DNA of 64,000 nt, from contig CBDATS010000004.1 in the NCBI GenBank assembly GCA_965200245.1, positions 768,001 to 832,000 of the forward strand, written 5' to 3'. The notes under the pieces are model-generated. The model was not told where the DNA came from, did no database searches, and saw only the letters and a program-made list of their open reading frames with translations. Both the position numbers and the translations under genes were made by a program. Of the stretch, positions 593 through 55,711 are shown in pieces (position 1 is the stretch's first letter; each line of letters begins with the position of its first letter). The DNA is from a bacterium (GTDB lineage: Bacteria > UBA8248).

Positions 593-637
593 TACCGCCC
601 TTCCTCCTGCGGGCGGGCGCCCGCTTCAAATCGAATC

Positions 638-1117: not shown

Positions 1118-1144
1118 GAAACCTCCCCCCTTTCGATCGGCCCG

Positions 1145-2125
1145 CTAGCCAAGGTAAACGACTGCGCCGGCAGTGAGCATCACGTTCAGGATAGAGAGCG
1201 GCAGAAGCACCTTCCATCCGAAACCCATCAGCTGGTCATAGCGCAGGCGCGGGGTGGATGCGCGCAGCCACATGAAAAAGAACATGAACGCCAGCACCTT
1301 GATCAGGAACCACAGGACGGGCGGCAGCAGCGGTCCGCGCCACCCGCCGAGGAAAAACGTCGCCCCCACCGCCGAGAGCGTGATCATACTGCAGTACTCC
1401 GCGAGAAAGTAGACCGCAAAGTGCATGCTGCTGTACTCGGTATGAAAGCCGCCCGTGAGTTCGCTTTCGGCCTCGGGCAAATCGAACGGCGCCCGGTTCG
1501 TCTCCGCCAGCATGCAGATGACGAAGAGCAGAAAACCCAGGGGCTGCAGGATGATATAGGGCATCCCGGCCTGACCCTCGACGATCTCCTTCAGGCTCAG
1601 GGTACCGGAGATCATCACCACACCCAGAAGCGACATCCCGAGCGAGAGTTCGTAGCTGATGAGCTGCGCTGCCGATCGGAGCCCGCCGAGGAGCGGATAT
1701 TTGCTGTTCGAGGCCCATGAGCCGAGCACGACGCCGTACACCCCGATGCCCGCCATGGCGAAGACGTAGAGGATCCCGACGTTCACGTCCGCCACCACCA
1801 GGTCCACTTTCTGGCCGAGGAAGCTTACGGAATCGCCGAAGGGAACCACGGCGAAGGCGGCCAGTGCCGGGATGAGCGTAATGGCCGGCGCGAGAACGTA
1901 AATCACCTTGTTGGCCTGAGCGGGAATGATGGTTTCCTTGAACATGAGCTTGATGCCGTCGGCGATGGGCTGCAAAAGCCCCGCCGGACCCACGCGGTTG
2001 GGACCCACGCGCACCTGTACGAGCGCGAACACCCGCCGTTCCATCCAGGTCATGTAGGCGGCGAGCAGCAAGAGCCCGCCAAAGCCTACGAGCACTTTTC
2101 CGAGAATGATGAGCAGAGAGACCAT
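1145..2125 (-). CDS. nuoH: NADH-quinone oxidoreductase subunit H
   Basis: [46 protein letters not shown] motifs. Confidence 0.97.
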
Positions 2126-4723: not shown

Positions 4724-4740
4724 CTATCGCCTCTTCCCTG

Positions 4741-6045: not shown

Positions 6046-6055
6046 TTTCGGATCC

Positions 6056-6655
6056 TCAGTCCTGGCCTTCGCCGTGCGTTTCCCTGGTACCCGCCAGTGC
6101 GGGTGATACCACCTCGTCCGCTCCGATGGGAGAGACCGTCTCGCCCTTTTCCAGTGCGGTCAGGATATCATTCATGATCTCCGGCGTTACACGCTCGAAG
6201 TAGTCTTCGTTTACCTGCACGCAGGGAGCACCTCCGCACGCGCCGAGGCATTCAACCGCCTCTATCGAGAACTTCCCGTCCTGGCGCGTTTGGCCCGTGC
6301 GGCAATCGAGTCGGTTCTCTATCTCGCGCAACAGCCTGCCCGCCCCCATCAAGGAACACGATAGGTTGTTGCATACCTGCACATGGAATTCGCCGATGGG
6401 CTGCGTCTTGAGCATGGTGTAGAAGCTCACCACGCTCCATACCTCCATGGCGGAGACCTCGAAAATCCCGGCCACATGCTGCATTGCCGCACTGGTGATG
6501 TAACCCGCCTGCTTCTGGGCCAGTTGAAGAGCGGGGATGAGAGCTGATCGTTTCACCGGATATTTGGCGATGATGCGTTCCAGTTCCGCTCGGTTCTCTG
6601 GCGAGAACTCGAAATGCTCTTCCTGCCCGGAATGGGGAAACCGTATCAACGCCAA
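6056..6655 (-). CDS. nuoE: NADH-quinone oxidoreductase subunit E
   Basis: CNNLSC and ECLGAC 2Fe-2S ligands; TTG start. Confidence 0.95.
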   Translation of the reverse strand: MALIRFPHSGQEEHFEFSPENRAELERIIAKYPVKRSALIPALQLAQKQAGYITSAAMQHVAGIFEVSAMEVWSVVSFYTMLKTQPIGEFHVQVCNNLSCSLMGAGRLLREIENRLDCRTGQTRQDGKFSIEAVECLGACGGAPCVQVNEDYFERVTPEIMNDILTALEKGETVSPIGADEVVSPALAGTRETHGEGQD

Positions 6656-6681
6656 AACAGTACCGCCTTCTCTGTTTCCTC

Positions 6682-7905
6682 TCAGCGATCTATCTCGCCC
6701 AGCACGATGTCGATGCTGCCAATGGCGGCCACGACATCGCCCATCAGACCGCCCCGGGTGATGTCGGGCAGCGCGTGAAGATTCGCAAAACTGGGCGCGC
6801 GCACTTTTACCTTATAAGGACCCGGGCTGCCATCGCTGATGATGTAATAGCCGAGTTCCCCCCGGGGGGACTCGATAGCACAGTACACCTCGCCCTCGGG
6901 CACGCTGTAGCCCTCGGTGAATATCTTGAAGTGGTGGATCAGCGCCTCCATGTCATGGGCCAACTGCTCCTTGGGCGGCGGGACCACCTTGGGATTGTCC
7001 GCCATGAGGGGTCCCTCGGGCATGCCCTCGAGCGCCTGCATGGCGATGCGCCGGGACTCGCGCATCTCGGCGACGCGCACCAGATATCTGTCGAGAATGT
7101 CGCCCCGCTCGCCCACGGGAACCTCGAAGTCGAATTCCTCATAGCCCGAGTAGGGCTCGTTCTTGCGGATGTCGTAGGGGACACCGCAGGCTCTGAGCAA
7201 GGGACCCGTGATCCCCAGGGCGCAGGCCTGCTCGACCGTCATGGCGCACACGCCCTCCGCGCGCCTTCGATAGATGGGGTTGTTGGTGAGGAGTTCCTCA
7301 TACTCGTCCACGCGATCAGAGAAGGGCTCCAGAAAATTCCGGCAATCCTCATAAAACGCCGCGTATGGTTCGCGTGCCACGCCGCCCACACGGAAATAGC
7401 TGGTCATCATGCGCACGCCCGAGACCTTCTCGAAAATCTTGAGTAACTGTTCGCGCTCCCTGAAGCAATAGAGAAAGACCGTCATCGCGCCCAGATCAAG
7501 TGCGTGTGTACCGAGCCAGACCAGGTGGCTGTTCAGGCGTGTCATCTCGGCGAGCAACACGCGCAAATACCTGCAGCGCCGGGGAACCTCCATGTCCAGG
7601 AGTTTCTCCACCGCCAGCACGAAACCCAGGTTGTTCGACATGGGTGCCAGATAATCCATGCGGTCGGTCATGGGGAGCGCCTTGTTGTAGGTCTTCTCCT
7701 CCATGTTCTTCTCGATACCGGTGTGCAGGTAACCGATGATGGGCTTGCACGTGAGCACCGTCTCGCCGTCGAGTTCGAGCACCACGCGCAAAACCCCGTG
7801 TGTGCTCGGGTGCTGCGGCCCCATGTTGAGCGTCATGGTCTCGGCCTGGATGGGACCGAGCATGTCGCTGTCGAGGGGGTCCGTGCGCCGGGAATCCGTT
7901 ACCAT
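6682..7905 (-). CDS. nuoD: NADH-quinone oxidoreductase subunit D
   Basis: NMGPQHPSTHGVLR, IGYLHTGIEK, C-terminal GEIDR. Confidence 0.97.
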   Translation of the reverse strand: MVTDSRRTDPLDSDMLGPIQAETMTLNMGPQHPSTHGVLRVVLELDGETVLTCKPIIGYLHTGIEKNMEEKTYNKALPMTDRMDYLAPMSNNLGFVLAVEKLLDMEVPRRCRYLRVLLAEMTRLNSHLVWLGTHALDLGAMTVFLYCFREREQLLKIFEKVSGVRMMTSYFRVGGVAREPYAAFYEDCRNFLEPFSDRVDEYEELLTNNPIYRRRAEGVCAMTVEQACALGITGPLLRACGVPYDIRKNEPYSGYEEFDFEVPVGERGDILDRYLVRVAEMRESRRIAMQALEGMPEGPLMADNPKVVPPPKEQLAHDMEALIHHFKIFTEGYSVPEGEVYCAIESPRGELGYYIISDGSPGPYKVKVRAPSFANLHALPDITRGGLMGDVVAAIGSIDIVLGEIDR

Positions 7906-7923
7906 CGATAGCCCTCGTAATCC

Positions 7924-8484
7924 TTATTCCACCGCCCGGGGCTTGCCCGCGGGGGTATTCCGGAAGGTGAACGCCACCGGCTCGGCGGAGATATCAAAAT
8001 CCTTGCGGTGGGGATGTCCCTCGAAGCCATCGGGCGTAAGGATACGCTCGAGTTCGGGGTGTCCCTCGAAAGTAATTCCCAAAAGGTCGTACGCCTCGCT
8101 CTCATGGAGTCTGGCGCCGGGCCATATCCCGCAGACGCTGGGCATTTTCGGCTCCAGATCGTCCGCGCAGGGAACTTCCAGGCGCAGGCGCCGTGACTTC
8201 TCGGGATTCAGGAGCGAATACGTCACCTTGAACCGGTAGGAAACCGGCAATTCCAGACAATCCACCCCGCAGACGAAGCTCAACAGCCTGTAACCTCTCT
8301 CATCGCGCAAAAAGCTGGCCGCGTCGAGCAAGGCTTCCGGCGAGACCTGCGCGGAAATCTGGCCGCGATGCTCGCGCGCGCCGAGAAAGCCGCCCCCAAT
8401 CTTCGCCTGAAGCAGGACAAGGTCCGGTTCCGTCTTCTCGATGGGCTCCGCCGTCCCTGCCTGCTCGCGCTCCCCTTCACTCAA
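7924..8484 (-). CDS. nuoC: NADH-quinone oxidoreductase subunit C
   Basis: ESEAYDLLGITFEGHPELERIL and GHPHRKDF motifs. Confidence 0.93.
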   Translation of the reverse strand: MSEGEREQAGTAEPIEKTEPDLVLLQAKIGGGFLGAREHRGQISAQVSPEALLDAASFLRDERGYRLLSFVCGVDCLELPVSYRFKVTYSLLNPEKSRRLRLEVPCADDLEPKMPSVCGIWPGARLHESEAYDLLGITFEGHPELERILTPDGFEGHPHRKDFDISAEPVAFTFRNTPAGKPRAVE

Positions 8485-8594
8485 CGGCTCAATCCCTCAA
8501 TCAGCAAAGGTGTGTTCATTTCAAGAAAAACGCTCACCCGGGCTTCGCTTCGACTTTCGAAACTCACACGGCGCGGGAAGCTTTCTCACGTTAT

Positions 8595-9092
8595 CTATAG
8601 CGAGGTGACGCCGGAATCCTCTCGGTAGAGCGTTTCATCCGCAATCTTCGCCTGAAGCTTCATGATTCCGTCGATGAGCGTTTCGGGACGCGGCGGACAG
8701 CCCGGCACATAGATATCAACGGGGACTACCTCGTCCACACCCTGTACGAGGGCGTAGTTGTTGAATATCCCGCCCGTGGAAGCGCACGCACCCATGGAAA
8801 TCACCCATTTCGGATCAGGCATCTGATCGTATATCTGCCGCAGCACGGGCGCCATCTTGCGCGACACCCTGCCCGCCACGATCATCAGGTCCGCCTGGCG
8901 CGGCGACGCGCGGAACACCTCGGCACCGAAACGCGATATGTCATATTTTGCCGCCGAAGTCGACATCATCTCGATGGCGCAGCACGCCAGGCCGAAAAGC
9001 GCGGGCCAAAGGCTGTTCTTGCGGGCCCATTTGATGACGTCGGTCGCGCGGCCCAGTACCACCTGGCCCTCGAGTTGCTGTTCTAGTCCCAT
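8595..9092 (-). CDS. nuoB: NADH-quinone oxidoreductase subunit B
   Basis: [25 protein letters not shown]; start reset to ATG at 9092 (MGLEQQ), which overlaps the nuoA stop region. Confidence 0.96.
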
Positions 9093-9439
9093 TCGAGTGC
9101 TCCCCGGCGCCACTCGTAGATCAGGCTGGCCACCAGCAAAGCCATGAAAGGCAAGATGGCGAGAAATCCGTATACGCCGAGACTTTTCAGGTTCACCGCC
9201 CACGGATAGAGGAAGATAGTCTCCACGTCGAAGACGATGAACAGTATCGCCACAAGAAAGAATTTCACGCTGAAACGGCCGCGCGCGTTCGACTGCGGCA
9301 CAATGCCGCACTCATAGGCGAAGTCCTTCTCCACCGTGGACTTGCGCCTGCCGAGCAGAAACGTCACGCCCAGATTCATAATGGCGAACCCGACAGCCAG
9401 CGCTATCAGAATCAATATGGGCACATACTCTTCCGGCAT
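9083..9439 (-). CDS. nuoA: NADH-quinone oxidoreductase subunit A
   Basis: YECG and [12 protein letters not shown] motifs; start reset to ATG at 9439 (MPEEY). Confidence 0.95.
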
Positions 9440-9748
9440 TTTCCGCCCCCACGGCGCCCGCAAGCGCTCTCCCGGCCATATTGCTGAGGATATCAAACCG
9501 AACGCATCTTACGGCTGGCATCCCATGGTGTCAACAATTCCAGCCGCCATGCGCCCTGTCCCGCAAAACACGGCCCGGCCAAAGGGGCTCTCATCACGCA
9601 CCTTCAACAGCTTACAGGCATTTTTATATTTTCTCGTCCGGGGAAATGGGGTATTTTGCATTGTTGCTACCTGTCGCCGGGAAGAGTGGCGCAACCTGCC
9701 CGGACACCTGAAGCGTCGTATCGCCGTGCGGACGTGAGGATCTGAGCC

Positions 9749-10879
9749 ATGAACGAACCGAATCCGATAATCAAGGCGCGCCTCAACGCCCTGAGACACG
9801 ATTTCGAGGAGTTGGCACCGTTCCAGGTGGGCTATCCCTGCAACCAGGATTTCAATTATTCGGATTTGATGCCCTTTCTGGAATACACCTTCAACAATGT
9901 GGGCGACCCTTTTCACGACAGCAATTTCCGCAGCAACACGCACGATGTGGAGCGTGAGGTCATCGCCCGGTTCGCTTCCCTGATGCATCTCGAACAGGAG
10001 CAGAGTTGGGGCTACGTCACCTCCGGGGGAACCGAGGGCAACATGTACGGCATTTATATGGGGCGCGAACTTTTCCCGAACGGCATGGTCTATTTCTCCC
10101 AGGACACACACTACAGCGTCCTCAAGATCCTGCGCGTCCTGAACGTGCGCAACATCATGATCAAAAGCCAGGAGAACGGAGAGATCGACTACGAGGATCT
10201 CCGCGAGACCATCCGTATCCACCGTGACGTTCCTGTCATCCTCATGGCGAACATCGGCACGACGATGAAAGGCGCCGTGGACAACATGGACAAGGTGCGG
10301 GACATTCTGGATGACCTGGCGATCACGAACGCCTACATCCACGCAGACGCTGCCCTGAGCGGCATGATTCTGCCCTTCGTAGAGGATCCGCAACCCTACG
10401 GGTTCAACGCGGGCTTCGACAGCGTCTCCATCAGCGGCCACAAGCTTATCGGCTGTCCACTGCCCTGCGGCGTCGTGCTGACGAGGCGCGATTACGTGGC
10501 GCGCATCGCCCGTTCGATAGAATACGTGGGCGTGCTAGACACCACGCTGTCCGGCTCGCGCAACGCGCTGACGCCGCTTATGCTCTGGTACGCCCTCGAG
10601 CGCTACGGGATGGACGGATTCAGTGAACTCGTGAAGGGGATGCTGGCGGTCGCCGAATACGCGGTCGAGCGCTTCCAGGAGTTCGGGGTCCCCGCATGGC
10701 GCAACAGGAACTCGGTGACTGTCGTCTTCCCCAGGCCTCCGAGCGAGGTATCGCGCAAGTGGCAAATCGCCCCGCTGGGAGACATCGCCCACCTCATCAC
10801 CATGCCGCACGTCACGCGCGGGATGATCAACGAGTTCGTCGACGACTACGTGAAGCAAAAGCACAGGCAAACTGCCTGA
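9749..10879 (+). CDS. PLP-dependent histidine decarboxylase / serine decarboxylase-like group II decarboxylase
   Basis: GYPCN, NNVGDPF, WGYVTSGGTEGNMYG, THYS, HADAALSG and SGHK (PLP lysine) motifs. Confidence 0.85.
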   Translation: MNEPNPIIKARLNALRHDFEELAPFQVGYPCNQDFNYSDLMPFLEYTFNNVGDPFHDSNFRSNTHDVEREVIARFASLMHLEQEQSWGYVTSGGTEGNMYGIYMGRELFPNGMVYFSQDTHYSVLKILRVLNVRNIMIKSQENGEIDYEDLRETIRIHRDVPVILMANIGTTMKGAVDNMDKVRDILDDLAITNAYIHADAALSGMILPFVEDPQPYGFNAGFDSVSISGHKLIGCPLPCGVVLTRRDYVARIARSIEYVGVLDTTLSGSRNALTPLMLWYALERYGMDGFSELVKGMLAVAEYAVERFQEFGVPAWRNRNSVTVVFPRPPSEVSRKWQIAPLGDIAHLITMPHVTRGMINEFVDDYVKQKHRQTA

Positions 10880-10891
10880 GGAGGTTGCCGG

Positions 10892-11284
10892 ATGAATCGA
10901 ATCATCATCACGGTGCGCGATGAGGTCGGCGTCATCGCGGACATCAGCAAGGTGCTGGCCGATGAGAACATCAACATCGAAGCCCTGAACACAGAGGTTG
11001 CAGGCGAGAAGGGTGTCGTCATTCTCACCACGAACGAGTCAGACCGCGCCCTGCATGTACTGATGAGCGCGGGCTTTCGGGCAGTCACCGATGAAGCGAC
11101 GGTCATCAGGCTGCGCGACGAGCCCGGTGCCCTCGCCAGGGTGGCCGAGAAATTCAAGGTCGCGGGCGTGAACATCCAGAGCATGCACATTCTGAATCGC
11201 CACGCCGGCTACGCGAACGTCGCTCTCACCACCGATGATGAAACGAAAGCAAAAGTGTTGCTGGAAGGCCAGGAGGTTCTCTGA
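10892..11284 (+). CDS. Tandem ACT-domain protein
   Basis: Two ACT repeats (DEVGVIADISKVLADENINI; DEPGALARVAEKFKVAGVNI); GAGGAGG RBS 12 bp after the decarboxylase stop region. Confidence 0.88.
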   Translation: MNRIIITVRDEVGVIADISKVLADENINIEALNTEVAGEKGVVILTTNESDRALHVLMSAGFRAVTDEATVIRLRDEPGALARVAEKFKVAGVNIQSMHILNRHAGYANVALTTDDETKAKVLLEGQEVL

Positions 11285-11620
11285 GGATTCCGGGGAGGGA
11301 ACGCCCGACTCTGCAGGGACAGGTCGCAACCATGATTTTCGAATCCGCAACAGACCTGGCTGAAGTCTACCGGCAATCGCGGAATGACGACCCAAGAGCA
11401 AAGATATGGGATTTCCACGGGAAAGTCGACAAACCATGGAAAAATACTCGACACAAACAGGGAGATATTGAAAACAAAAGCATTGACAACTTCTAGTGCA
11501 TCCCAAACGACCAGAAAGCGAACGGAGGAGGCATAAATCCATTCCTGTGGATCCGCGCCGGTTTTGCAGGGGCTGTTCGCGAACGACCCCTGCGGCCTGC
11601 TGCATCTCCCCGCAAGTCAC

Positions 11621-12490
11621 TTATCCCGCCAGTATCAGCAAGACGATTCCCGCCAGAATCACCACGCCTCCCAGCAAGGTTTCGCGGACTCGCTCGCGCT
11701 CCCTGAAGAACACATAACCTATGGCGATGGCCAGGAGAATCTCGACCTGTTTCACCGATTCCACGTAGGAAGTGAGCGTGAGACGATACGCCTCCGCCTG
11801 CGAGAGGCTCGTAATGAAGGCGAACAGCCCCAAAGACACGAAGCCTTTCCAGAGTCTGGGCGCTTTCCGGAAGTGCCCGGCGGACTTCCAGACAGTGAGC
11901 GGCAACACGACAAGCGACGCCACCGCATAGGTGGCAAACGTGCCGAAGGTGGCATCCGAGAGCACCGCCGCCTGCTTGAAGGTGATCACCGAGGGCGCAT
12001 ACAGCAACGAGGCGAGTATCGTATAGCGCATCCCCTTGTCGGTAAACAGTGTGCGGACGGGCTCGAACCAGCCGATTCGCGCGCGCGAGACGTTCAGCCC
12101 GTAGACACCCACCAAGGTGACAATGATACCAACAAGCCCCCAGGCGGAGGGCGTCTCGCCCAGCGTGACGAATGCGAGCACGACCAGCCAGATGGTCGCG
12201 AGTTTCCACAGCGAGGTCACCACCCCCATCGATCCGTAGAGGAGCGCCTTCGAGAGCGAGAGCGTGGCCGAAGTCTGCAGGAAACCGAACAGCAGACACA
12301 TCCACCAGAAGCCGGGCTTTATCTCGGGTACACCCCTCATCCACACCGCCAGGGCAGCGAAGGGGAGCAGGAACGCGAACCGCCCCAGCACGTTGATGTA
12401 TTCATCGAGTTGATGGCCTATGGATTTCATCGCCGCGTTCCTGAGCACCTGCGCAAGAGCCGCTATAACGGCGAGCGTCACCCAGTCCAT
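11621..12490 (-). CDS. EamA/DMT family transporter
   Basis: About ten hydrophobic segments in two repeats, LGE and FRER motifs; start at ATG 12490 with GGAG RBS. Confidence 0.85.
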   Translation of the reverse strand: MDWVTLAVIAALAQVLRNAAMKSIGHQLDEYINVLGRFAFLLPFAALAVWMRGVPEIKPGFWWMCLLFGFLQTSATLSLSKALLYGSMGVVTSLWKLATIWLVVLAFVTLGETPSAWGLVGIIVTLVGVYGLNVSRARIGWFEPVRTLFTDKGMRYTILASLLYAPSVITFKQAAVLSDATFGTFATYAVASLVVLPLTVWKSAGHFRKAPRLWKGFVSLGLFAFITSLSQAEAYRLTLTSYVESVKQVEILLAIAIGYVFFRERERVRETLLGGVVILAGIVLLILAG

Positions 12491-12694
12491 GTCCTGCTCC
12501 TCCAGCGTGCGAAAAGCCAGGGCCATTTCTACGCGCACTTCCCAGGCAAGTCCAACGACGACAGGGTTTCACCGGGTTTTCGCGCAAAGGTCCCACCCGA
12601 AGCGTCGTCCGAAACTCCTCCCCCGTCTGACACGGCGGTGTGCGGTATGCTAGTCTGGTGTTGGTAATTCTATCCCCGGGCAGGAGACTGGCGC

Positions 12695-13723
12695 ATGATT
12701 CGCGACGATGTATTCGTCTTCGACAACGTGGTGCACATGTATGACTACTCGGACGAGAACCTCGTCTCCGGGAAAAGCGAATACGATCGCAACTATCACG
12801 TGAGCAAGGTGCTTCGCAGGAGGCGAACCGCGCCGACGGACATCTACGCCGGCTGGGATCCGGTGGAGGGCTTCAAGCGTCGCTGGAACGTGGAGGACAT
12901 GGGACGCCTCGTCTTTGAGGATTCCGGCACCGATATGGCGATGGCCCAGGCCGTGCCCCTGTTCGATCTGTACAAGGACGGCTTTGCGCCCGTGAAGGCG
13001 CAGTACGCCTTCACGCAGGCCTTCCCCGAACGCTGCCTGTTCTGCGGAGCCGTGGACCCCATGTACCCGAGCGTAGCCGCAGCCTGCGAGGAGATGGAAC
13101 GCCAGGTGAAGGAATGGGGGGCGAAATCCATCAAAATCTACAATGCCCACGTGGACGGAAAATCCTGGGCGTGCGACGACCCTGAAATCGCATACCCCCT
13201 TTACGAGAAAGGGCGAGAACTCGGTATCGAGGTGTTCCAGTTCCACAAGGGGAATCCTATCACGAGGGCGAAACTGCGCGACCTGTCCCCGCTCGACATT
13301 GAGGGCGCGGCGCTTGATTTTCCCGATCTGCTCTTCGGCGTTCACCATCTGGCGGTACCCTACTTCGAGGAAGTCGTCTGGATGGCAAATCGTTATGAAA
13401 ACGTCTTTCTCGTGCTCTCGGGCATCGGCCACACACCCATGGTCGCGCCCAGAACCTTCACAGAATGGATGGGCAGGTTGCTGCGCGACGTGGGTTCCGA
13501 AAGAATCCTCTGGGGTTCCGAAATGGCGCTTCTCGGGAACGCGAGGCCCGTCCTCGAGTGGATATGGGAGATGGAAATCCCTGAATCCATGCAGGACGAC
13601 TACGGCTACCCGCAAATCACCGAGTTGGACAAGCGCAACATCCTGGGACTTAACCAGGCGCGCATTTTCGGCGTGGATGTGGAGGCCAAGAAACAGGAAC
13701 TCTGGAACGGAGGCGCGCGATGA
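12695..13723 (+). CDS. Amidohydrolase_2-family TIM-barrel metalloprotein with atypical metal motif
   Basis: DNVVH, QFHKG, VHHL, ILWGSE and KRNILGLNQARIFG pattern; AGGAG RBS. Confidence 0.85.
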   Translation: MIRDDVFVFDNVVHMYDYSDENLVSGKSEYDRNYHVSKVLRRRRTAPTDIYAGWDPVEGFKRRWNVEDMGRLVFEDSGTDMAMAQAVPLFDLYKDGFAPVKAQYAFTQAFPERCLFCGAVDPMYPSVAAACEEMERQVKEWGAKSIKIYNAHVDGKSWACDDPEIAYPLYEKGRELGIEVFQFHKGNPITRAKLRDLSPLDIEGAALDFPDLLFGVHHLAVPYFEEVVWMANRYENVFLVLSGIGHTPMVAPRTFTEWMGRLLRDVGSERILWGSEMALLGNARPVLEWIWEMEIPESMQDDYGYPQITELDKRNILGLNQARIFGVDVEAKKQELWNGGAR

Positions 13724-14058
13724 ACGAGTACGAAGCCCTCGTCACCGATGTCCAAGACATCATCGAGACGCAGATTCACCCGCTGCTCAAGATTCACGGC
13801 GGCGGTATCACGCTCAAGGGCGTGAGCGAGAAGGGCGAGGTCGCGCTTCGCTTCGAGGGTGCGTGCCGGGGCTGCATGCTGAAGAGCGTCACCTACGCCC
13901 TGGGCGTACGTCAAAAGCTCATGCAGCACCCGGGCGTCACGGATGTCTCTGTCGAGGGTGTGCGCCTTTCGGATCACGCCATCAAACGGGTGGAGAAATT
14001 CTACTCCGGCTATTCGTTTTGGGTGGGGGATCCGCTCAAAGACCAGTCATCGTCTTGA
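13720..14058 (+). CDS. NifU/NfuA C-terminal domain protein (Fe-S carrier)
   Basis: IHPLLKIHGGGI...FEGACRGC (CxxC); ATGA overlap with upstream gene. Confidence 0.85.
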   Translation: MNEYEALVTDVQDIIETQIHPLLKIHGGGITLKGVSEKGEVALRFEGACRGCMLKSVTYALGVRQKLMQHPGVTDVSVEGVRLSDHAIKRVEKFYSGYSFWVGDPLKDQSSS

Positions 14059-15365
14059 TCGCCTCGCGCTACCAGACACGAAAAGAACTGCGCCTGTGGT
14101 ACGGATGGGTGATCCTCCTCGCCGTCTTCATCATCATGGCGGTGACCATCGGCATCCGAAACTCCATCGGTGTCTTCTTCAAGGACATCTCCGGCGAATT
14201 CGGCTGGAACCGTGCGCAGACAGCCGCTGCCTTCACGATGGGCATGCTCGGCCAGGCGGTGGTTGCCCCCTTCGCGGGCTGGGTGCTCGAGCGCTTCAAC
14301 ATGCGCTGGGTTATCGGGGCGGGCATTTTCATGAACGGAACGGTGCTCATATTCGGAGCCTGTATCGGCGCGCTATGGCATTTTTACGCCATGTATTTTC
14401 TCCTCTCCGTGGGTTTCGCCTTCACGGCCAATCTGCCGCAGGTACAACTGCTCTCGAACTGGTTCGTCCTGAAACGGGGATTGGCGATGGGCTTCTCGCA
14501 CGCCGCCCAGGGCTTTGCACCCATTCTCAACATCTTTACCCCCCTGCTCATCGCGAGCCTCGGCTGGCGGGGGAGCTATCTCGCGCTGGCGGGACTGACG
14601 CTGCTGATCGTGCTGCCGTTCGCCCTGTTACTGCTGCGCGACCACCCCAGAGAGAAGCGCAGCGCACCCGACGCGCCCTTTCTGACGCCCGAGGAGTTCT
14701 CGCGTGCCCGCGTCAGGGCCGCCGTCATCGTTCCTGCAGGCAGAGAAAGGGAAACCACCTCCCTCTCTTTTTTCTTCACCCGCAGGTTCATGCTGATCGG
14801 AGGCATTTACGGCAGCATCGCGTATACCTTCACCGCTGTTCTGGTGCACCTGGTTCCCCATGCGACGGATCAGGGTTTTTCCCTTTCGGGGGGTGCAGCG
14901 CTCTTCGCCCTCTATGGAGCGTCCCTCGCCGCGGGAAACGCGTTGAGTGCGATTTCGGATCGCATCGGAAGGCTCCCCACCTACATGGTGGGCGTGATAT
15001 GCGGTGTGGCATCCTGTTATCTTCTCGCCTCCTTCACGCGCGAATCGCCCGAGTGGCACATATATGCGAGCACCATGGGAGTGGGTTTCGCTCTCGGTTT
15101 CGTCCGGCCTACGGCGTCCTCCCTCCTGGCCGATCATTTCGCGGGACCGGGCTTCGGCCTAGTGAACGGATGCGCGATGATGGTCTTCTCCCTGGTGGGT
15201 GCCCTAGGTCCCTGGGTAACGGGAATGCTCTTCGACGCGAGCGGGAACTATTTAACAGGTTTTCTCCTGGTGGGCGGCATGTTTGTCGCGGGCGCGATTT
15301 TCGTCCTGAACCTCTCGCGCATACCGCGCGAAGCGCGTAGCCAAGGCGCTGAAAACCATGCATAG
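14055..15365 (+). CDS. MFS transporter
   Basis: WYGW N-terminus, about 12 hydrophobic segments, SNWFVLKRGLAMG and SDRIGR motifs; probable TTG start overlapping the NifU stop (TTGA). Confidence 0.88.
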   Translation: MIASRYQTRKELRLWYGWVILLAVFIIMAVTIGIRNSIGVFFKDISGEFGWNRAQTAAAFTMGMLGQAVVAPFAGWVLERFNMRWVIGAGIFMNGTVLIFGACIGALWHFYAMYFLLSVGFAFTANLPQVQLLSNWFVLKRGLAMGFSHAAQGFAPILNIFTPLLIASLGWRGSYLALAGLTLLIVLPFALLLLRDHPREKRSAPDAPFLTPEEFSRARVRAAVIVPAGRERETTSLSFFFTRRFMLIGGIYGSIAYTFTAVLVHLVPHATDQGFSLSGGAALFALYGASLAAGNALSAISDRIGRLPTYMVGVICGVASCYLLASFTRESPEWHIYASTMGVGFALGFVRPTASSLLADHFAGPGFGLVNGCAMMVFSLVGALGPWVTGMLFDASGNYLTGFLLVGGMFVAGAIFVLNLSRIPREARSQGAENHA

Positions 15366-16617
15366 CGAATCGCGCTTCTGGTACGGCTGGGTGGTGCTGG
15401 CCGTAGTCTATCTCGTCATGATCTCGCTCATCGCCTTTCGCGCCACAATAGGACCCTTCTTCAAGGAAATCTCGGGCGAACTCGGCTGGAGCCGGGGGGC
15501 GACGGCGGCCGCCTTTTCCATCGGGATGCTGGCCCAGGCGGTCATCTCGCCGCTTGCGGGCATTCTCTCCGACCGCTGGAGCATCCGGGCAACGATGTCG
15601 GCGGGCGTCGTGGTGTTCGGCCTCTCCTTGCTTATCGGGAGCCAAATCACATCGCTTTGGCACTTTTACCTGATGTACATCGGCCTTTGTGCGGGTTTCG
15701 CCGCGGGCACGTGGGTCGCCCAGGTGCCCACGCTCTCGAACTGGTTCGTGAAAAAGAGAGGCCTCGCCTTGGGAATCGCCAACACCTGCCAAGGAGGCGC
15801 ATTCTGCCTGAACATCGCTACACCGTACCTCATCGCGGCCCTGGGATGGCGAATGAGCTACCTCGCGCTGGCGGGCGTGGTCCTGCTCTTCGTGCTGCCC
15901 ATCTGCATCGTCTTTCACAGGGACCATCCATCGGACAAGGACACCATCGCCGATGCGCCCTTCGTCCATCACACGCTGGATGAACAACCTCCGGAACCCC
16001 CGCCTACATCATCCGGCACTCCGCAAGTCCCCCTGTTCAACCTGTCGTTTTTCTTTTTCCTGGGTTCTTTCCTGCCTATGGCCTACGCCTTCGCGGGCAT
16101 GCTCGTTCATCTGGTGCCCCACGCCACCGACCAGGGCTTCTCGCTCGAAACCGCGAGTGTCATTTTCGCCATATGGGGGTTCTGCCAAGTGGGAGCGAAC
16201 CTCATAAGCCCGGTCTCGGACAGGCTCGGCAGGACGCCGACGTTCCTGATCGGCGTGGCGCTCGGAATCGCCTCCGCTCTGATTCTCGCCACCTACGAGA
16301 AGGGCGACCCCCAGATGCGCTTCTACCTGGGCGCGATAACCAATGGCGCTGCCCTGGGACTCATGCGGCCAACCGGATCAGCCATCCTGGCAGATTACTT
16401 CGAGGGTCCGGGCTTCGGGCGCGTGAATGGGGTGGCGATGATGGCGTTCGCCCTTTGGGGTTCGGCAGGGCCATGGACCACGGGCTTTCTCTTCGACATG
16501 CACGGCTCCTACCTTTGGGGCCTGTCGGCCTTCGCGTTCATGTTCTTCCTCTCCGGCGTCTTCGTCCTGTTGCTCGGCTGGACGAAAAGAGATAGGAGAG
16601 AGATGTCATCCACCTGA
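15358..16617 (+). CDS. MFS transporter (paralog of upstream MFS)
   Basis: WYGW, SNWFVKKRGLALG, VHLVPHATDQGFSL, SDRLGR; overlaps upstream gene by 8 bp. Confidence 0.9.
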   Translation: MHSESRFWYGWVVLAVVYLVMISLIAFRATIGPFFKEISGELGWSRGATAAAFSIGMLAQAVISPLAGILSDRWSIRATMSAGVVVFGLSLLIGSQITSLWHFYLMYIGLCAGFAAGTWVAQVPTLSNWFVKKRGLALGIANTCQGGAFCLNIATPYLIAALGWRMSYLALAGVVLLFVLPICIVFHRDHPSDKDTIADAPFVHHTLDEQPPEPPPTSSGTPQVPLFNLSFFFFLGSFLPMAYAFAGMLVHLVPHATDQGFSLETASVIFAIWGFCQVGANLISPVSDRLGRTPTFLIGVALGIASALILATYEKGDPQMRFYLGAITNGAALGLMRPTGSAILADYFEGPGFGRVNGVAMMAFALWGSAGPWTTGFLFDMHGSYLWGLSAFAFMFFLSGVFVLLLGWTKRDRREMSST

Positions 16618-16646
16618 AATACAGAAACACGAATTCAGGAGTGAAC

Positions 16647-17567
16647 ATGCCGGTCGAAAAAGTCGATGGATTCTACTTTCACCCCACTTCGCGCGAGCGC
16701 GTCCTGGCGCAGCGCCATGCCAATCCGGCCAGGACGCCGTGGATGCCGATGGAAAAACCACTCGCAGAGTGCAAGGTCACCCTGGTGTCCACTGCCGGTA
16801 TCTTCATGAAGGGCGACGAGTCGTTCGACTACGAGAGAGAACGCCGTGAGGGCACATGGGGAGATCCTACCCACCGGGAAATTCCCAGGACGGCGGGCCA
16901 GGACGATGTACAGTATTCGCACCTGCACGTCGACACCTCGTTCATGGCCGAGGACAGGAACGTATCCTGGCCGGTCGACGTTTTCCTCGAGTTCGAGAGA
17001 GGGGGAAAAATCGGTGCACTCGCCGAAATGCTCTATTCCATCATGGGCTACATCCCGAATTTCAATCCCCTGGTGAAGCACACCGCGCCCTTGATGATCG
17101 AGAAGATGAGAGAAGAGGGTGTGGACGCGGCTTTTCTCTATCCGGTCTGACCTCTGTGCAACCGGTCCGGCGGACTGCTTCAGCGCGAAATCGAAAAGGC
17201 GGGAATCGCCACTGTCATCATCTCCAACGTGCCCGAAACCACCGAACGCGTCTGTGTCCCCAGGGCCGTTTTCGTCCAGTATCCCTTCGGGCGGCTGTTG
17301 GGCGTCGTGGGCGATTACGCAGGCCAGCGCAGGATTTGCGAGGACATGGCCGCGCTGCTCGAAGAAGCGGACGCACCCAACACCTACCGACATCTGCCGT
17401 ATGAGTGGCCCGAATCGCCAGAGACCACCAAATGGCGTCCGGACGTCCCCCCGCCCATCTTCGCCATCCGCCAGGCCAAGGAAGGCGGGTACGAACTGAT
17501 GGATGACTTCAGGGACGAAGAACGCGCCGCGTATTCCGATTCGGGAAGCCAGGCGAGCGCATGCTGA
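16647..17567 (+). CDS. Selenoprotein of the glycine/sarcosine/betaine/proline reductase selenoprotein B (GrdB/PrdB-like) family; Sec at TGA 17148-17150
   Basis: ORFs 16641..17150 and 17229..17567 share a frame; read-through gives VDAAFLYPV-U-PLCNRSGGLLQREIEKAGIATV (UxxC); family motifs KPLAECKVTLVSTAG, GDPTHREIP, MGYIP, VPRA..PFGR; AGGAG RBS before ATG 16647. Confidence 0.88.
17160..17180 (+). promoter_or_regulatory. Putative bacterial SECIS hairpin
   Basis: AAC-CGGTC-[CGGCG]-GACTG-CTT stem-loop starting 10 nt after the in-frame UGA, with G in the apical loop. Confidence 0.65.
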
Positions 17568-17589
17568 CTTCTGCGCACCGCCTGCAAGA

Positions 17590-18999
17590 CTACGCCTTCT
17601 CCAACCTAGCGAAATCGAGGTAAAACCGTCCGTCCACCTCAGATCGCAACAGCGTCTGCGTGAAATCTTTCGATTCTATCCGGTAGATCCGCTCTTCACC
17701 TCTTCCTTTCGAGACGTTCGTGAGTGTCTCTCCATCAAGGCCGCCGGGCACTCTCTTCCCCGTCAGGGAGAGTATGGTGGGGGCCAGGTCTGTATTTCCC
17801 GTCGGTGCGTCTACCCGCGCGCCCGCCTGAAATTCGGGGCCTTTCGCAATCAGGAAATTGCGAAGTTCATAGGGACTGCAAGAACCGTGCGTTCCGCCGC
17901 ATCCCTTGTTGTTGACAGAGGAATATCCCCAACCGGGGAGCGCACCCTCACGGTTCCCGTCCTCCGGGAAACCATCGCCCCACTGAAAGCCCATAAGCAA
18001 ATCGGGCGCGCGAGGTCCGCCACAGCCGACCAGGCCCAGGGGCATCACGCCCGGCAAGGCTCCCCGGGCGCCTTCTCCATCTTTCGAGAACAATGGCCCC
18101 GCCCATTCTTTCGTCCGTAGAAACGCAGCGATCTCCAGAAGCGCTTTTTCCGATTTGGCATAGAAAAGGGCGGCCCCCTCGCTGTGCGCCGCCTGCCAGA
18201 TATTCCCTCGGCCGGAGATGTCCGCCAGTTCCGCATCCAGGTCGATCATACTTGTCGTCGCAACGACCCCATGATCCGAGAACAGGAGAAGGTTTGTTTC
18301 TGACCAATCGTCTCGCTGCGCCTGAAACTTCTCCCAGAACGCGCCGAACAGACTATCCACTCCATGAAGTGCCTGGTGATGCACGGTACCCGCGGTGCCC
18401 CGGTGATGCTGCGTGCTGTCCGGCTCGCTCAGATGAATGACGAGCACCGCGGGTTCCAGTTCGGGAACCACGTAATCGAGCGCCAGGTCGAGCGCCCATG
18501 CGCAGCGCGGAAGGTCCGGTTCGGCACCGGAGGGGACTGTTCCGGCCTCCTCTATCGTGTCCCGCCCCTCGGCGGGATACGCCGCAACGGGATGAATCAA
18601 GTGCGCGGCGTGACCTGCGTTCCAGAGCCACGCGGAACCACTCGACGCGGTGCTGATGATCACGCCGCCGCCCACGCGCTCGAAAAAGGTATCCCGCAAC
18701 AGCAGGCGCCCGCCCATGGCGCGCTCCCAGGCGAGGAGGTTCTCGTGCCGACCCGTCGTGATGGTTCGGCCCAACTCGCGCGAGAAGAGCGAATTGCCCG
18801 GAAGACCATGCTTTTCAGGGTAGACGCCTGTGGCAAGGCTTGAGACGCAAACTCTCGTAGAGGTGGGAAACGTGCTGCGGTGATTCTGAAACCATGTGCC
18901 GCGCTCCGCCACCGCCATCAGGTTCGGCGCGCTCTGTTCGCTCAGGGCATCGGCGCGCAGGCCATCGAACTGAATCGCTATCACACGAGGCGAGGCCAT
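17590..18999 (-). CDS. Alkaline phosphatase superfamily / nucleotide pyrophosphatase-phosphodiesterase
   Basis: FDGLR, FPTST (Thr nucleophile), EPDSTQH, SDHG, GTHGS motifs. Confidence 0.88.
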   Translation of the reverse strand: MASPRVIAIQFDGLRADALSEQSAPNLMAVAERGTWFQNHRSTFPTSTRVCVSSLATGVYPEKHGLPGNSLFSRELGRTITTGRHENLLAWERAMGGRLLLRDTFFERVGGGVIISTASSGSAWLWNAGHAAHLIHPVAAYPAEGRDTIEEAGTVPSGAEPDLPRCAWALDLALDYVVPELEPAVLVIHLSEPDSTQHHRGTAGTVHHQALHGVDSLFGAFWEKFQAQRDDWSETNLLLFSDHGVVATTSMIDLDAELADISGRGNIWQAAHSEGAALFYAKSEKALLEIAAFLRTKEWAGPLFSKDGEGARGALPGVMPLGLVGCGGPRAPDLLMGFQWGDGFPEDGNREGALPGWGYSSVNNKGCGGTHGSCSPYELRNFLIAKGPEFQAGARVDAPTGNTDLAPTILSLTGKRVPGGLDGETLTNVSKGRGEERIYRIESKDFTQTLLRSEVDGRFYLDFARLEKA

Positions 19000-19072
19000 C
19001 CGCTTTCCATCCCGAAAAAAAGCGGCGGGGGTTTGTTTCTGCCCCCGCCGCAATCAAATGAACGGTCTGTCG

Positions 19073-19849
19073 TCAGCTGGCCTGTTCCGAGGCCTGCATG
19101 GCTTCTTCGAGTTGCCCGGGCGTCAGGGGGTCGCCCACGCCGATCATCGAATCGCGCGTCACGAGCTGGAAGAGTTGCGCCTCGGTCCAGTCTTCGGTTC
19201 CCGCCGGACGCTGGGGGATGATGAGATAGCGGCAATCTGCGTTCGAGTCGATGACGATGAGTTCTACGTCATCGGGCGCATCGAAGCCCATGTCCTTCAA
19301 GGTTCCCCTCGGGTCCGTCACCGCCTTCGAACGATAGGGGAAACTCTTGTACCAAGTGGGAGGCTGTCCGAGGATTTGTCTCGGGTAGCACGAACAGAGC
19401 GTGCACACCACCATGTAGCGGGTCGTATCGGTATTCTCAAGCGCCACCACGCGGTTGATGCCCGTGGTGTCGATCCCCATCTCGGCGCACGCGGCATCTG
19501 CGTCCGCCAGGAGCCTTTCCTTGAAACCCTCGTCCACCCATGCGCGCGCGATTATGCGCGAACCGATAGCAGGGCTCTGGCCGTAGATCTCCTCCACCGC
19601 GCGCCGCATCTCGTCCGTCGTAAGAATGCCCTTCTCGCGAAGGACGTTCATGAGAGCCATCATGCGCACCTGATAGTAGTCCAGATCATGCTCGACCTGG
19701 GTCACGGCACCTTCGCGGTAGGCGTCATCCGACTGCATCCGCGCGTTGTGCGCCGAAGGGTCCTGGCTGTAGGTGTGGGAATGGTCGCCGTGGTGGGTAT
19801 GTCCATTGTGATGATCGTGTGAGTGCGCCATGGTGTGCTCCTCGCTCAC
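19073..19849 (-). CDS. Co-type nitrile hydratase alpha / thiocyanate hydrolase gamma-like subunit
   Basis: VVCTLCSCYPR metal motif (19388-19405), ARAWVD, VTRDSMIGV; His-rich N-terminus. Confidence 0.9.
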   Translation of the reverse strand: MSEEHTMAHSHDHHNGHTHHGDHSHTYSQDPSAHNARMQSDDAYREGAVTQVEHDLDYYQVRMMALMNVLREKGILTTDEMRRAVEEIYGQSPAIGSRIIARAWVDEGFKERLLADADAACAEMGIDTTGINRVVALENTDTTRYMVVCTLCSCYPRQILGQPPTWYKSFPYRSKAVTDPRGTLKDMGFDAPDDVELIVIDSNADCRYLIIPQRPAGTEDWTEAQLFQLVTRDSMIGVGDPLTPGQLEEAMQASEQAS

Positions 19850-19870
19850 GGGAGAGCCGGCGGGTTCGGC

Positions 19871-20158
19871 TTAAACCGGCTCCAGCCAATGTTCATAAAT
19901 TTCGATATAGAGTTTGTCCTGTTTTCGTCCCGCCTCGTGATCCCACAGATCGTTGATGTCGAACTCCACCCAGTAGAGTTCCCGGAGCGGTAGTCCGTCA
20001 CCACCATAGGCGAGATTCTCGGGGTTTTTGTATTTGCCGAAATAGCGGTTGATGAAACCGATCTTCCCCTTCACGAAATACGTCGTCCGGTGATGGCCGT
20101 CGGGGTACATCTCCTTGACTCGCACCCTGTCGCCCACGCGGAAGCGGGTTTCCTCCAT
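19871..20158 (-). CDS. Nitrile hydratase beta C-terminal SH3-like domain / thiocyanate hydrolase alpha-like subunit
   Basis: FRVGDRVRV, GHHRT..FVKGK, NPENLAYG, LYWVEF..LW, IEIYEHWLEP; start at ATG 20158. Confidence 0.87.
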   Translation of the reverse strand: MEETRFRVGDRVRVKEMYPDGHHRTTYFVKGKIGFINRYFGKYKNPENLAYGGDGLPLRELYWVEFDINDLWDHEAGRKQDKLYIEIYEHWLEPV

Positions 20159-20240
20159 CGGAACATCCCCTTTGCAGTTGAATCGACTGGAACCGGAATA
20201 CTGTCTGAATTTTACATTGCGGGGGCTCTTTGTCCAGTCC

Positions 20241-21263
20241 CTATATCTCAAGCCCGTAAATTCGCCTTGCATTGGTGGTGAGGATCATTTCCTGTTCCGC
20301 TTCCGAGAGGCGGTTCAGGCCCGGAATATCCCGCGCGGGCTGGTGGCAGCCCATGTCCGCCGGATAGTCCGTGCCGTAGAGAATCCGCTCCGCACCCAGC
20401 GCCTTCGCCGCAAATTCAAGGCAATCCGCGTTGTGGATGATGGTGTCATAGTAGAAACGGCCGAAATACTGCTCCGGGTCTTTCGCCCCGTGTATTTTTG
20501 GCTCCCTGCGCTCGGCGTAGCCATGCTGCCAGCGGCCTCGAATCCAGGGCGTGAAGCCGCCCAGGTGGGAGAGATAGAACCGAAGCCCCGGAAACCTGTC
20601 TATCACGCCGCCGAATATCAAGCACGCCACCGCAACCGTGGTGTCGAGCGGATTGCCAATGAAGTTCCTCAGGTAGAAATCCCTGAGCCGATCGTCTGAA
20701 CCCAGCACGTTCGTGGGATGCACGAACACGGGCATGTCGAGGACCTGGGCCTTTGCCCAGAATACGTCCAGACCCGGATCGTCCAGGTTCTTTCCCGCCA
20801 CGTTCGAGGCGATCATGACGCCAATGTGGCCGTTCGCCTTCGCGCGCTGGAGTTCCGCCGCAGCGGCCTCGGGCAACTGGAGGGGAACGGTGGCCATGCA
20901 CGAAAATTTGTCGGGATACTCGATGGTCAGGGCCGTCAGACCGTCGTTCAGCGAGGCGGACAGTTCCCTGTTCGCTTCGGCCTCGAGCGTATAGAGCGTC
21001 ATGGCGGGACCGATGGAGAGCACCTGATGCGCAACACCCATCCGTTCCATGTCGGTGAAGCGCGGTGCGAGTTCATAGTAAAGGGGCGTGAGCCTGTTCC
21101 TGAGTTCCGACTCGCGCCCCAACACCTTTCCTCGCGTGACAAGCCACTCGCCCTGCTCGTCAGCCTCGATCGACGCCGTGCGGCCAAAGCGGCCCGCGCG
21201 CACATCCGCAATGAACTGCCCCGGATAGATATGGGTGTGGGGATCGATAGCCGCCATCTTCAT
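20241..21263 (-). CDS. Amidohydrolase_2 family, ACMSD-like decarboxylase/hydrolase
   Basis: IDPHTH, PVFVHP, HLGGFTP, LYGTDYP. Confidence 0.88.
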   Translation of the reverse strand: MKMAAIDPHTHIYPGQFIADVRAGRFGRTASIEADEQGEWLVTRGKVLGRESELRNRLTPLYYELAPRFTDMERMGVAHQVLSIGPAMTLYTLEAEANRELSASLNDGLTALTIEYPDKFSCMATVPLQLPEAAAAELQRAKANGHIGVMIASNVAGKNLDDPGLDVFWAKAQVLDMPVFVHPTNVLGSDDRLRDFYLRNFIGNPLDTTVAVACLIFGGVIDRFPGLRFYLSHLGGFTPWIRGRWQHGYAERREPKIHGAKDPEQYFGRFYYDTIIHNADCLEFAAKALGAERILYGTDYPADMGCHQPARDIPGLNRLSEAEQEMILTTNARRIYGLEI

Positions 21264-55659: not shown

Positions 55660-55711
55660 GGATTTCCTCAAACGTCGTTCCAGCCGCCGGAATAATGCGG
55701 GAGCGAGGCAA

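Follow-up and report, generated by a model that had tools for sequence, protein, structure and literature searches.

The 64-kb window analyzed here (that is, the whole stretch of DNA under study, from genome G000, which we infer to be a member of UBA8248) contains, at positions 12695 to 17567 of the plus strand, five co-directional genes that encode an atypical amidohydrolase, a protein with a NifU C-terminal domain (Nfu-type), two major facilitator superfamily (MFS) transporters and a selenoprotein of the PrdB/GrdB family. We hold, with moderate confidence, that this locus is a composite of a conserved amidohydrolase-Nfu unit, accompanied by transporters, and a lineage-specific selenoprotein add-on, rather than a single five-gene pathway. 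The selenoprotein is regarded as an add-on because the same flanking genes are found without it in the genomes of another genus (g22), because its orthologs in a further genus (g2) are located behind a cyclase gene, and because the arrangement of the window is almost never encountered in metagenomes. The novel aspects are the resolved genomic context of the selenoprotein family and the existence of a widespread, unexplained amidohydrolase-Nfu couple; neither the selenoprotein itself nor the existence of such orphans is new.

The phylum was represented by 51 species genomes, 23 of which, counting G000, belong to the genus of the window (hereafter g1); all of these are metagenome-assembled genomes (MAGs) and close relatives of one another, and the estimated contamination of the G000 bin is 8%. 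Genomes of UBA8248 have been reported to rank among the most selenoprotein-rich in bacteria, with 48-54 selenoprotein genes each (PMC13326102). When one genome per species was scanned with the amidohydrolase alignment, 48 loci were obtained, 13 of them from other phyla. The PrdB-like alignment A7 was too diverse for a metagenome scan, hence the narrower alignment A8 was used, which detected 295 relatives, 80 of which were retained.

The core of the locus is the pair of genes for the amidohydrolase (12695..13723, plus strand; PF04909, 94.6 bits against a gathering cut-off of 26.4, E 1.2e-26), a TIM-barrel enzyme of the ACMSD/LigY class of the Amidohydro_2 family, and the Nfu-type protein (13720..14058, plus strand; PF01106, 55.1 bits against a cut-off of 27), which overlap by 4 bp (ATGA). 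Both genes are present in 28 of the 51 phylum genomes and, at the thresholds used, those in which no NifU-like match was obtained yielded none to this amidohydrolase either; in all 28 the two genes are adjacent, in one case with a 2.5-kb insertion between them. Within g1, an amidohydrolase ortholog (89-100% identity) was identified in 22 of the 23 genomes, the only one without it being 79% complete, and is followed by the NifU gene in all 22. The loci from other phyla come from Alphaproteobacteria, Burkholderiales, Mycobacterium, Pseudonocardia and Acidobacteria, and the NifU-like gene is directly downstream of the amidohydrolase in all 12 that could be assessed (Alphaproteobacteria, Burkholderiales, Mycobacterium and Pseudonocardia), the thirteenth contig ending inside the amidohydrolase gene. 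In a Shinella plasmid, the couple (39% identity) overlaps by 4 bp and is annotated as 'amidohydrolase family protein' and 'NifU family protein'. Among 16 junctions between the two genes, a 4-bp overlap is possible in 10, a 1-bp overlap is found in one and gaps of 1-18 nt in three; one junction is undetermined, and the last is an in-frame fusion of 462 aa in a single alphaproteobacterial MAG (L071:8001-9389). A literature search retrieved no description of this couple.

The Nfu-type protein might be an Fe-S carrier of general purpose whose gene only accompanies that of the amidohydrolase, with no specific functional link between the two. It is the only representative of its subfamily in the genome (tblastn, E 1e-8) and contains the canonical Nfu motif CxxC (C49 and C52, invariant throughout a set of 15 sequences of several phyla), and a single Cys is invariant in the amidohydrolase, all of which would suit a general carrier. 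However, the two genes keep their adjacency and order in several phyla, even at identities as low as 32-39%, 11 of the 16 junctions permit overlapping stop and start codons, the two genes are present or missing together in the phylum at the thresholds used, and the NfuA equivalog models TIGR03341 and NF008392 give only 42.8 and 41.3 bits against cut-offs of 269 and 268, with a match confined to the C-terminal domain. We therefore regard a purely general carrier as quite improbable. The prediction of a complex from the alignments of the two proteins gave a score of 0.14 against a mark of 0.32 and was used neither for nor against an interaction.

In canonical Amidohydro_2 enzymes, the metal ligands are contributed by an HxH motif on strand 1 and an Asp on strand 8. 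In the window enzyme, the first His of HxH is Val (V-x-H, 'FDNVVHMYD') and Glu substitutes for the strand-8 Asp ('WGSE'), and both features are invariant in all 16 aligned members of the family; when aligned with it, the canonical paralog that is also encoded in the window (20241-21263) reads 'DPHTH' and 'GTD'. The designation of this enzyme as atypical in the initial, sequence-only reading of the window is thus borne out. No NCBIfam model matched the amidohydrolase, and none of the operon proteins received an NCBIfam equivalog assignment; the nearest solved relatives in profile searches are LigY (5vn5, E 5e-8), BB4693, ACMSD and LigJ (E 5e-8 to 5e-5). The neighbors of the couple in other phyla include genes for FAA hydrolase (two loci), glutathione S-transferase (two loci), MDMPI_N, AraC regulators, FAD monooxygenase, MFS and TctC proteins, and those on the Shinella plasmid include sugar-phosphate and inositol genes. 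These contexts hint at catabolism of aromatic, unsaturated or sugar acids, and the substrate of the couple might be a carboxylated acid of aromatic or unsaturated type or one derived from sugars. A second atypical amidohydrolase (65% identity) is encoded elsewhere in G000 (contig C5:333928-334935; L009:9928-13933), with no NifU gene next to it; behind this copy come two genes of the M24 creatinase/prolidase type and one of the glyoxalase family.

The transporter genes complete the module. MFS transporter 1 (MFS1; 14055..15365, plus strand, start codon TTG; MFS_1, 138.6 bits), a monocarboxylate or oxalate:formate-like protein, overlaps the NifU gene (TTGA) and is followed, with an 8-bp overlap, by MFS transporter 2 (MFS2; 15358..16617, plus strand; MFS_1, 153.9 bits), whereas the EamA-family gene for a drug/metabolite transporter (11621..12538, minus strand; 66.4 bits) is divergent from the operon. 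For both MFS proteins, the best-scoring models are those of monocarboxylate and oxalate:formate transporters (SfMCT, NF049980, and TIGR04259), which are matched along their full length with 100-110 bits (100 bits for MFS1 with SfMCT, its best NCBIfam model); these scores fall well short of the equivalog cut-off (320), so that the substrate cannot be read from the models. The two MFS proteins are 46-47% identical to each other. MFS1, a dispensable paralog, was not found in two g1 genomes (G001 and G007) and is broken into fragments in a third (G009); MFS2 is the copy that is kept in every variant of the genus examined (78-87% identity) and in g22 (49-52%), where it directly follows the NifU gene. 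The insertion between the amidohydrolase and NifU genes mentioned above is that of G007 (L015, 5090-7504), where it carries a DNA methylase/HNH gene.

Comparison with the g22 genomes delineates the part of the locus that is shared. In all four of these, the divergent EamA gene (53-54% identity) is followed by the amidohydrolase gene, the NifU gene and one MFS gene, and the selenoprotein gene is not at the locus; in the three loci that extend far enough, the MFS gene is directly followed by nitrile-hydratase-like and Amidohydro_2 genes. The corresponding genes of the window, convergent to the operon, encode nitrile-hydratase-like alpha and beta subunits and the canonical Amidohydro_2 protein (19073..21263, minus strand; NHase_alpha, 241 bits; NHase_beta_C, 72.8 bits; Amidohydro_2, 113 bits). 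Compared to g22, the PrdB-like gene and the convergent gene for a type I phosphodiesterase/nucleotide pyrophosphatase-family protein (17590..19053, minus strand; Phosphodiest, 111.5 bits) are extra genes in g1, located between the shared flanks. Given the synteny of the nitrile-hydratase-like and Amidohydro_2 genes with the amidohydrolase-NifU-MFS genes in both g1 and g22, the operon may be only part of a larger functional island. In two further genomes (G046 and G032), only the amidohydrolase-NifU pair is present. The alpha subunit of the nitrile-hydratase-like protein in the window contains a His-rich N-terminus and the motif 'VCTLCSC'.

The selenoprotein gene shows a different distribution. 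Within g1, orthologs of it (82-99% identity) were identified downstream of the module and are intact in 19 of the 23 genomes, and the amidohydrolase and PrdB-like orthologs are located on the same strand of one contig, 2.7-6.8 kb apart, in 22 of the 23. Outside the genus, the linkage breaks down. The PrdB-like gene was not found within 8 kb of the amidohydrolase-NifU pair in any of the 13 loci from other phyla; the window arrangement is seen in one of the 80 metagenome loci (L083, 87% identity), and this contig and g1 are the only places where the full arrangement was seen. The nearest orthologs outside g1 are those of the g2 genomes (72-74% identity), which form the sister group of the g1 operon clade (support 85/83); in the g2 genomes, there is no match to the amidohydrolase or the NifU-like protein, and the PrdB-like gene is located behind a cyclase-family gene (PF04199) in all three loci. 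The gene arrangement noted from the sequence of the window is thus kept within the genus and, apart from this contig, was not seen beyond it, and the neighborhood search recommended at that stage reveals wide co-occurrence of the amidohydrolase with NifU and co-occurrence of these with GRDB that is restricted as described.

The alternative is that all five genes belong to one pathway, in which the MFS proteins would import a substrate, and the Nfu-matured amidohydrolase and the selenocysteine (Sec) nucleophile would act on this same substrate or its product, amounting to a reductive cleavage that is independent of PrdA. Apart from the tight spacing and the genus-wide gene order with a mostly intact selenoprotein gene, this possibility is favored by the lack of a terminator-like site in the 29-bp gap between the MFS2 and PrdB-like genes, by RNA contigs that bridge this junction in two runs, and by the position of PrdB-like genes elsewhere, also directly behind metal-dependent enzymes, such that pairing with a hydrolase may be a rule of the family. 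Against it stand the end of the co-occurrence at the genus border, the finding that the closest outside orthologs are in genomes where neither the amidohydrolase nor NifU was found, the synteny with g22 that marks the selenoprotein and phosphodiesterase genes as extra DNA between conserved flanks, and three g1 genomes (G004, G008 and G022) in which the selenoprotein gene is split across two or three frames and the rest of the module is intact. On this evidence, the single pathway seems rather unlikely. In G008 and G022, about 2.9 kb of DNA carrying a double glyoxalase-domain gene is inserted ahead of the split gene (L018, G022, 7419-9929); the G004 gene is split without such an insertion.

The gene is probably co-transcribed with the module, to which the RNA data give a weak hint. 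Contigs from RNA libraries (four runs of one study, X1-X4) match the window without differences over the listed pieces and bridge three of the four operon junctions, namely amidohydrolase/NifU (X1, X2 and X4), NifU/MFS1 (X3) and MFS2/PrdB-like (X1, 16468-16685; X3, 16524-16769); the depth is low, and there is no information on strand or transcript ends. A promoter scan of the region 11400-19200 detected no promoter-like sites, and a terminator scan of the same region found 11 sites compared to 6.8 +/- 2.9 in shuffled sequences, none of them in an intergenic gap; this lineage may use promoters of a different kind, so that nothing can be concluded from the scans.

Several considerations weigh against the composite interpretation or the evidence that enters it. 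The genome counts are not independent because all the genomes are MAGs and close relatives, and neighboring genes were called by a simple longest-ORF (open reading frame) method, which is crude. The split copies of the selenoprotein gene in the three g1 genomes may be long-read errors and not signs of decay. Within g1, the selenoprotein gene is tightly linked, at the same spacing in most genomes and with its own ribosome-binding site (RBS), and this stable linkage, the RBS and the RNA contigs that bridge the junction may reflect real functional coupling in this genus; the RNA libraries, with their low contig depth, might in turn contain carried-over DNA. With respect to the couple, the amidohydrolase family has only one invariant Cys (C117), so that the amidohydrolase alone is unlikely to be an Fe-S client. 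The amidohydrolase-NifU fusion is a singleton and carries little weight because a 96%-identical relative (346 aa) is unfused and none of the best 120 of the 543 homologs is fused; given the unfused relative, it is possibly an assembly error.

The selenoprotein is real. Its gene (16647..17567, plus strand; 306 aa) most likely starts at ATG 16647, with AGGAG ahead of it at 16637-16641, and the Sec codon UGA is located at 17148..17150 (U168 when numbered from this ATG; context YPV-U-PLC, motif UPLC), with the frame and the protein similarity running on across it. Judging by comparative sequence analysis, this is a genuine UxxC selenoprotein, as initially proposed, because the UGA is conserved, Cys homologs exist, the downstream hairpin is conserved, and the genome encodes tRNA-Sec along with SelA, SelB and SelD, all three above the curated cut-offs. 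One in-frame TGA is found at the same place in PrdB-like relatives throughout the phylum, and amino acid conservation (40-90% identity) continues through and past it. In Cys homologs, the site reads 'GCPLCC'. A rough pattern search located the site codon in 61 of the 80 metagenome loci (19 were not located) and yielded TGA in 50 and TGC or TGT in nine (about eight of which seem to be true Cys forms), the remaining two (TAA) being false hits of the pattern.

A hairpin resembling the selenocysteine insertion sequence (SECIS) is present at 17163..17177 (plus strand; 6 pairs in the window sequence and a 3-nt loop starting with G), and the RNAalifold consensus of 13 diverse sequences is a 7-pair stem from +15 to +31 after the UGA, again with a 3-nt loop beginning with G and with compensatory changes in two of the seven pairs. 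A hairpin of this kind shortly after the UGA conforms to the bacterial SECIS consensus. The opposing view, that TGA 17148 is a true stop and the gene a truncated remnant, followed by an untranslated frame or a separate small gene, could appeal to the behavior of standard gene callers, which truncate the protein (in many database entries it stops after about 169 aa), and to the window hairpin taken on its own, whose fold is not superior to that of shuffled sequence (z 0.24). The conservation beyond the TGA, the Cys at this position in homologs, the compensatory changes in the hairpin and the complete Sec machinery argue against a stop to such an extent that we give this view next to no credence. 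The selD gene of G000 (contig C8:72779-73741) itself contains one in-frame TGA, and SelD of this genome is probably a selenoprotein as well.

The selenoprotein is genuine but not undescribed: the family of PrdB-type UxxC proteins, including stand-alone ones, has been cataloged since 2005 (PMC1088965, PMC2398784). In the Sargasso Sea data, 42 genes of 'proline reductase PrdB' (pfam07355, UxxC) were counted against one GrdA and one GrdB (PMC1088965), and 235 Sec forms and 110 Cys forms of PrdB were reported for metagenomes of the Global Ocean Sampling (GOS) (PMC2398784). A 2026 review, in the part that deals with PrdB, describes only the clostridial enzyme (PMC13188914). A literature search on PrdB-like and GrdB-like proteins led to work on dehalorespiration with fluoroacetate.

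As noted from the sequence of the window, no GrdA, GrdE or PrdA gene is present within the 64 kb, and none is adjacent to the selenoprotein gene. The genome does, however, contain a canonical-type grd cluster on contig C5 (L005:6886-11658), which encodes GrdC-like, GrdA and GrdE proteins and a full-length GrdB-like selenoprotein, so that Stickland-type genes are not absent from the organism. Of the initial picture of an organism with complex I and menaquinone rather than a classic Stickland fermenter, the respiratory part holds, as complex I genes (nuoB-J, 74-9311) and genes of the futalosine pathway of menaquinone synthesis (MqnC, 54580-55671; MqnE, 60598-61737) are indeed present in the window. 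The genome-wide check suggested along with that proposal recovered, in addition to the Sec machinery, grdA and grdE in the C5 cluster, where the single PF09338 (GrdE/PrdA-family) match of the genome is also found; because this match belongs to the grd cluster, none of the three short PrdB-like paralogs of the genome has a PrdA/GrdE partner of its own. Within the C5 cluster, the GrdC-like gene combines DUF5940 and thiolase, the GrdA motif is 'CFVU' (CxxU), and the Sec motif of the GrdB-like protein is 'UGTG', that is, without the Cys of UxxC.

In Grd systems, protein A and protein C are common to several B proteins. The PrdB-like proteins might accordingly be alternative, substrate-specific B proteins that feed the Grd machinery encoded on C5 (GrdA, GrdC-like protein, thioredoxin), and the content of the C5 cluster, as well as the presence of GrdA matches in 35 of the 51 phylum genomes, would fit this possibility. 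It is at odds with the lack of a GrdA match in five g1 genomes of 94-100% completeness (G001, G007, G009, G015 and G019; two consist of a single contig), all of which retain the operon with an intact PrdB-like gene, and in one more genome that encodes a PrdB-like protein (G048). Furthermore, none of 38 neighbors of a more distant PrdB-like group (40-45% identity) is GRDA or Gly_reductase (nor is any of them Amidohydro_2 or NifU), and PrdB-type genes outnumber GrdA 42 to 1 in the marine metagenomes mentioned above (PMC1088965). A role as alternative protein B is thus very unlikely. A canonical Grd system as the explanation of the selenoprotein, which had been named as a finding that would undo the initial proposal, was rejected because the five near-complete sister genomes without a GrdA match keep the operon.

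The PrdB-like family is, to judge by its genomic contexts, a set of stand-alone proteins encoded behind varied, mostly metal-dependent, enzymes. In the 80 metagenome loci, the gene directly upstream encodes an MDMPI_N/DinB-like protein in eight cases, a cyclase-family protein in four and a Zn-dependent alcohol dehydrogenase (Zn-ADH) in four. Three PrdB-like paralogs are present per genome. In G000, the paralog on contig C8 is located behind an MDMPI_N gene, and the third, more distant one ('APAUGLC'; contig C4:1532073-1532870, L007:11273-12070) lies between genes for an OppC-type permease and a cysteine-dioxygenase-type cupin, near an amino-acid permease gene. A tandem pair of PrdB-like genes was observed in G032 (L011, 8699-10582), the first of which seems to be fragmented, with extra stops. 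The AlphaFold model of the PrdB-like protein is confident, with a mean pLDDT of 85; a Foldseek search of the PDB with this model returned no match at E <= 0.001, the wide VIA-align comparison gave nothing beyond generic Rossmann-like rows (the best with Z 8.1, in the range of common arrangements), and PDB sequence searches with the single protein or the A7 profile gave no match.

Taken together, these observations establish the gene identities, the capacity for Sec decoding and the pattern of conservation, and they suggest a scheme in which the role of the Nfu-type protein, the class of substrate and the chemistry of the selenoprotein are predictions from sequence. The core is the widely conserved pair of an ACMSD/LigY-class amidohydrolase with a degenerate metal motif and a usually overlapping Nfu-type CxxC protein, the latter of which would act as a metal or Fe-S donor, or a redox subunit, for the former. 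In this bacterial family, the pair is joined by a carboxylate-type MFS importer, duplicated in most g1 species, and by the divergent EamA transporter, and together they might form a module for uptake and conversion of a small organic acid. In g1 alone, the PrdB-type gene was joined to the last MFS gene; its product is probably a selenol/thiol (Sec-Cys) reductase that works without a PrdA/GrdE pyruvoyl partner and is re-reduced by cellular thiols, and the family might serve different metal-dependent enzymes in different lineages.

A bolder version of the composite interpretation, which we consider improbable, holds that the amidohydrolase-Nfu pair is an undescribed, Nfu-dependent two-component enzyme class present in at least four phyla and wired in g1 to a PrdA-independent PrdB-type selenoprotein, giving a new reductive route for an imported carboxylate. 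If this were true, a respiring bacterium would possess Stickland-like Sec chemistry without a pyruvoyl partner, and a protein of the amidohydrolase fold, with half of the HxH metal motif gone, would need an Nfu-type CxxC or Fe-S subunit. Conversely, should the pair turn out to be ordinary (the Nfu-type protein being, for example, a metal chaperone), the locus would be a catabolic module of a routine kind. Stand-alone PrdB-type proteins rank among the environmental selenoproteins of highest abundance, and the published accounts, in the parts concerned with them, assign them neither a partner nor a reaction. Each PrdB-like clade is found behind a different enzyme (amidohydrolase-Nfu, cyclase-type hydrolase, Zn-ADH or DinB/MDMPI), which provides concrete, testable enzyme pairs, none of which needs PrdA, GrdE or GrdA. 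The amidohydrolase-Nfu couple is also present in cultivable Bradyrhizobium, Shinella and Paraburkholderia and so is amenable to direct study.

The layout of the locus originally read from the window, with five co-directional genes, their three overlaps, the 29-bp gap and the divergent EamA gene, was reproduced in full by the ORF and Pfam analysis. Just upstream of the EamA gene, a pyridoxal phosphate-dependent decarboxylase-family gene is followed by an ACT-domain gene (9749-11284, plus strand), and this pair is kept at that place in sister species.

Each component of the locus can be set against a known system. The amidohydrolase belongs to the ACMSD/LigY/LigJ/gamma-resorcylate decarboxylase branch of PF04909, with a TIM-barrel match that spans 250 residues, and shares with LigY the 'GSE' at the strand-8 acid position, but differs from this branch in having Val in place of the first His of HxH and in being paired with an Nfu-type gene. 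The Nfu-type protein has in common with the Nfu/NfuA carriers the NifU C-terminal domain, the invariant CxxC and an 'HGGG' motif; in contrast to NfuA, it lacks the N-terminal domain, its scores remain well under the equivalog cut-offs of NfuA and NifU, and its gene is tied to one enzyme family and not to Fe-S assembly genes.

The selenoprotein is homologous to PrdB, aligning to positions 19-234 of the 238 in the model TIGR04483 (E 2.5e-35), with a score of 122 bits that is below the equivalog cut-off of 300. The GRDB family (PF07355) is matched with 35.2 bits against a gathering cut-off of 22, only at profile positions 216-344, that is, over the C-terminal 130 positions, and the score with TIGR01918 (50.5 bits against 65.45) falls short of assignment to glycine/sarcosine/betaine reductase B. 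The Sec is at the same place as in PrdB and GrdB, in a UxxC motif, but the window protein is short and PrdB-like, without the N-terminal part of about 215 residues of GrdB (about 430 aa at full length), has a C-terminal extension of about 50 residues compared to both, and is encoded next to an amidohydrolase, an Nfu-type protein and transporters. The PrdB of the Sargasso Sea and GOS data is a close counterpart, with the same Pfam family, the UxxC motif, a predominance of Sec forms with a minority of Cys forms, and occurrence where GrdA and GrdB genes are rare (PMC1088965, PMC2398784). In the sections of those studies that present the family, it is listed and counted without partner genes or function (PMC1088965, PMC2398784), whereas here its contexts are resolved, with three paralogs per genome and each clade located behind a different metal-dependent enzyme.

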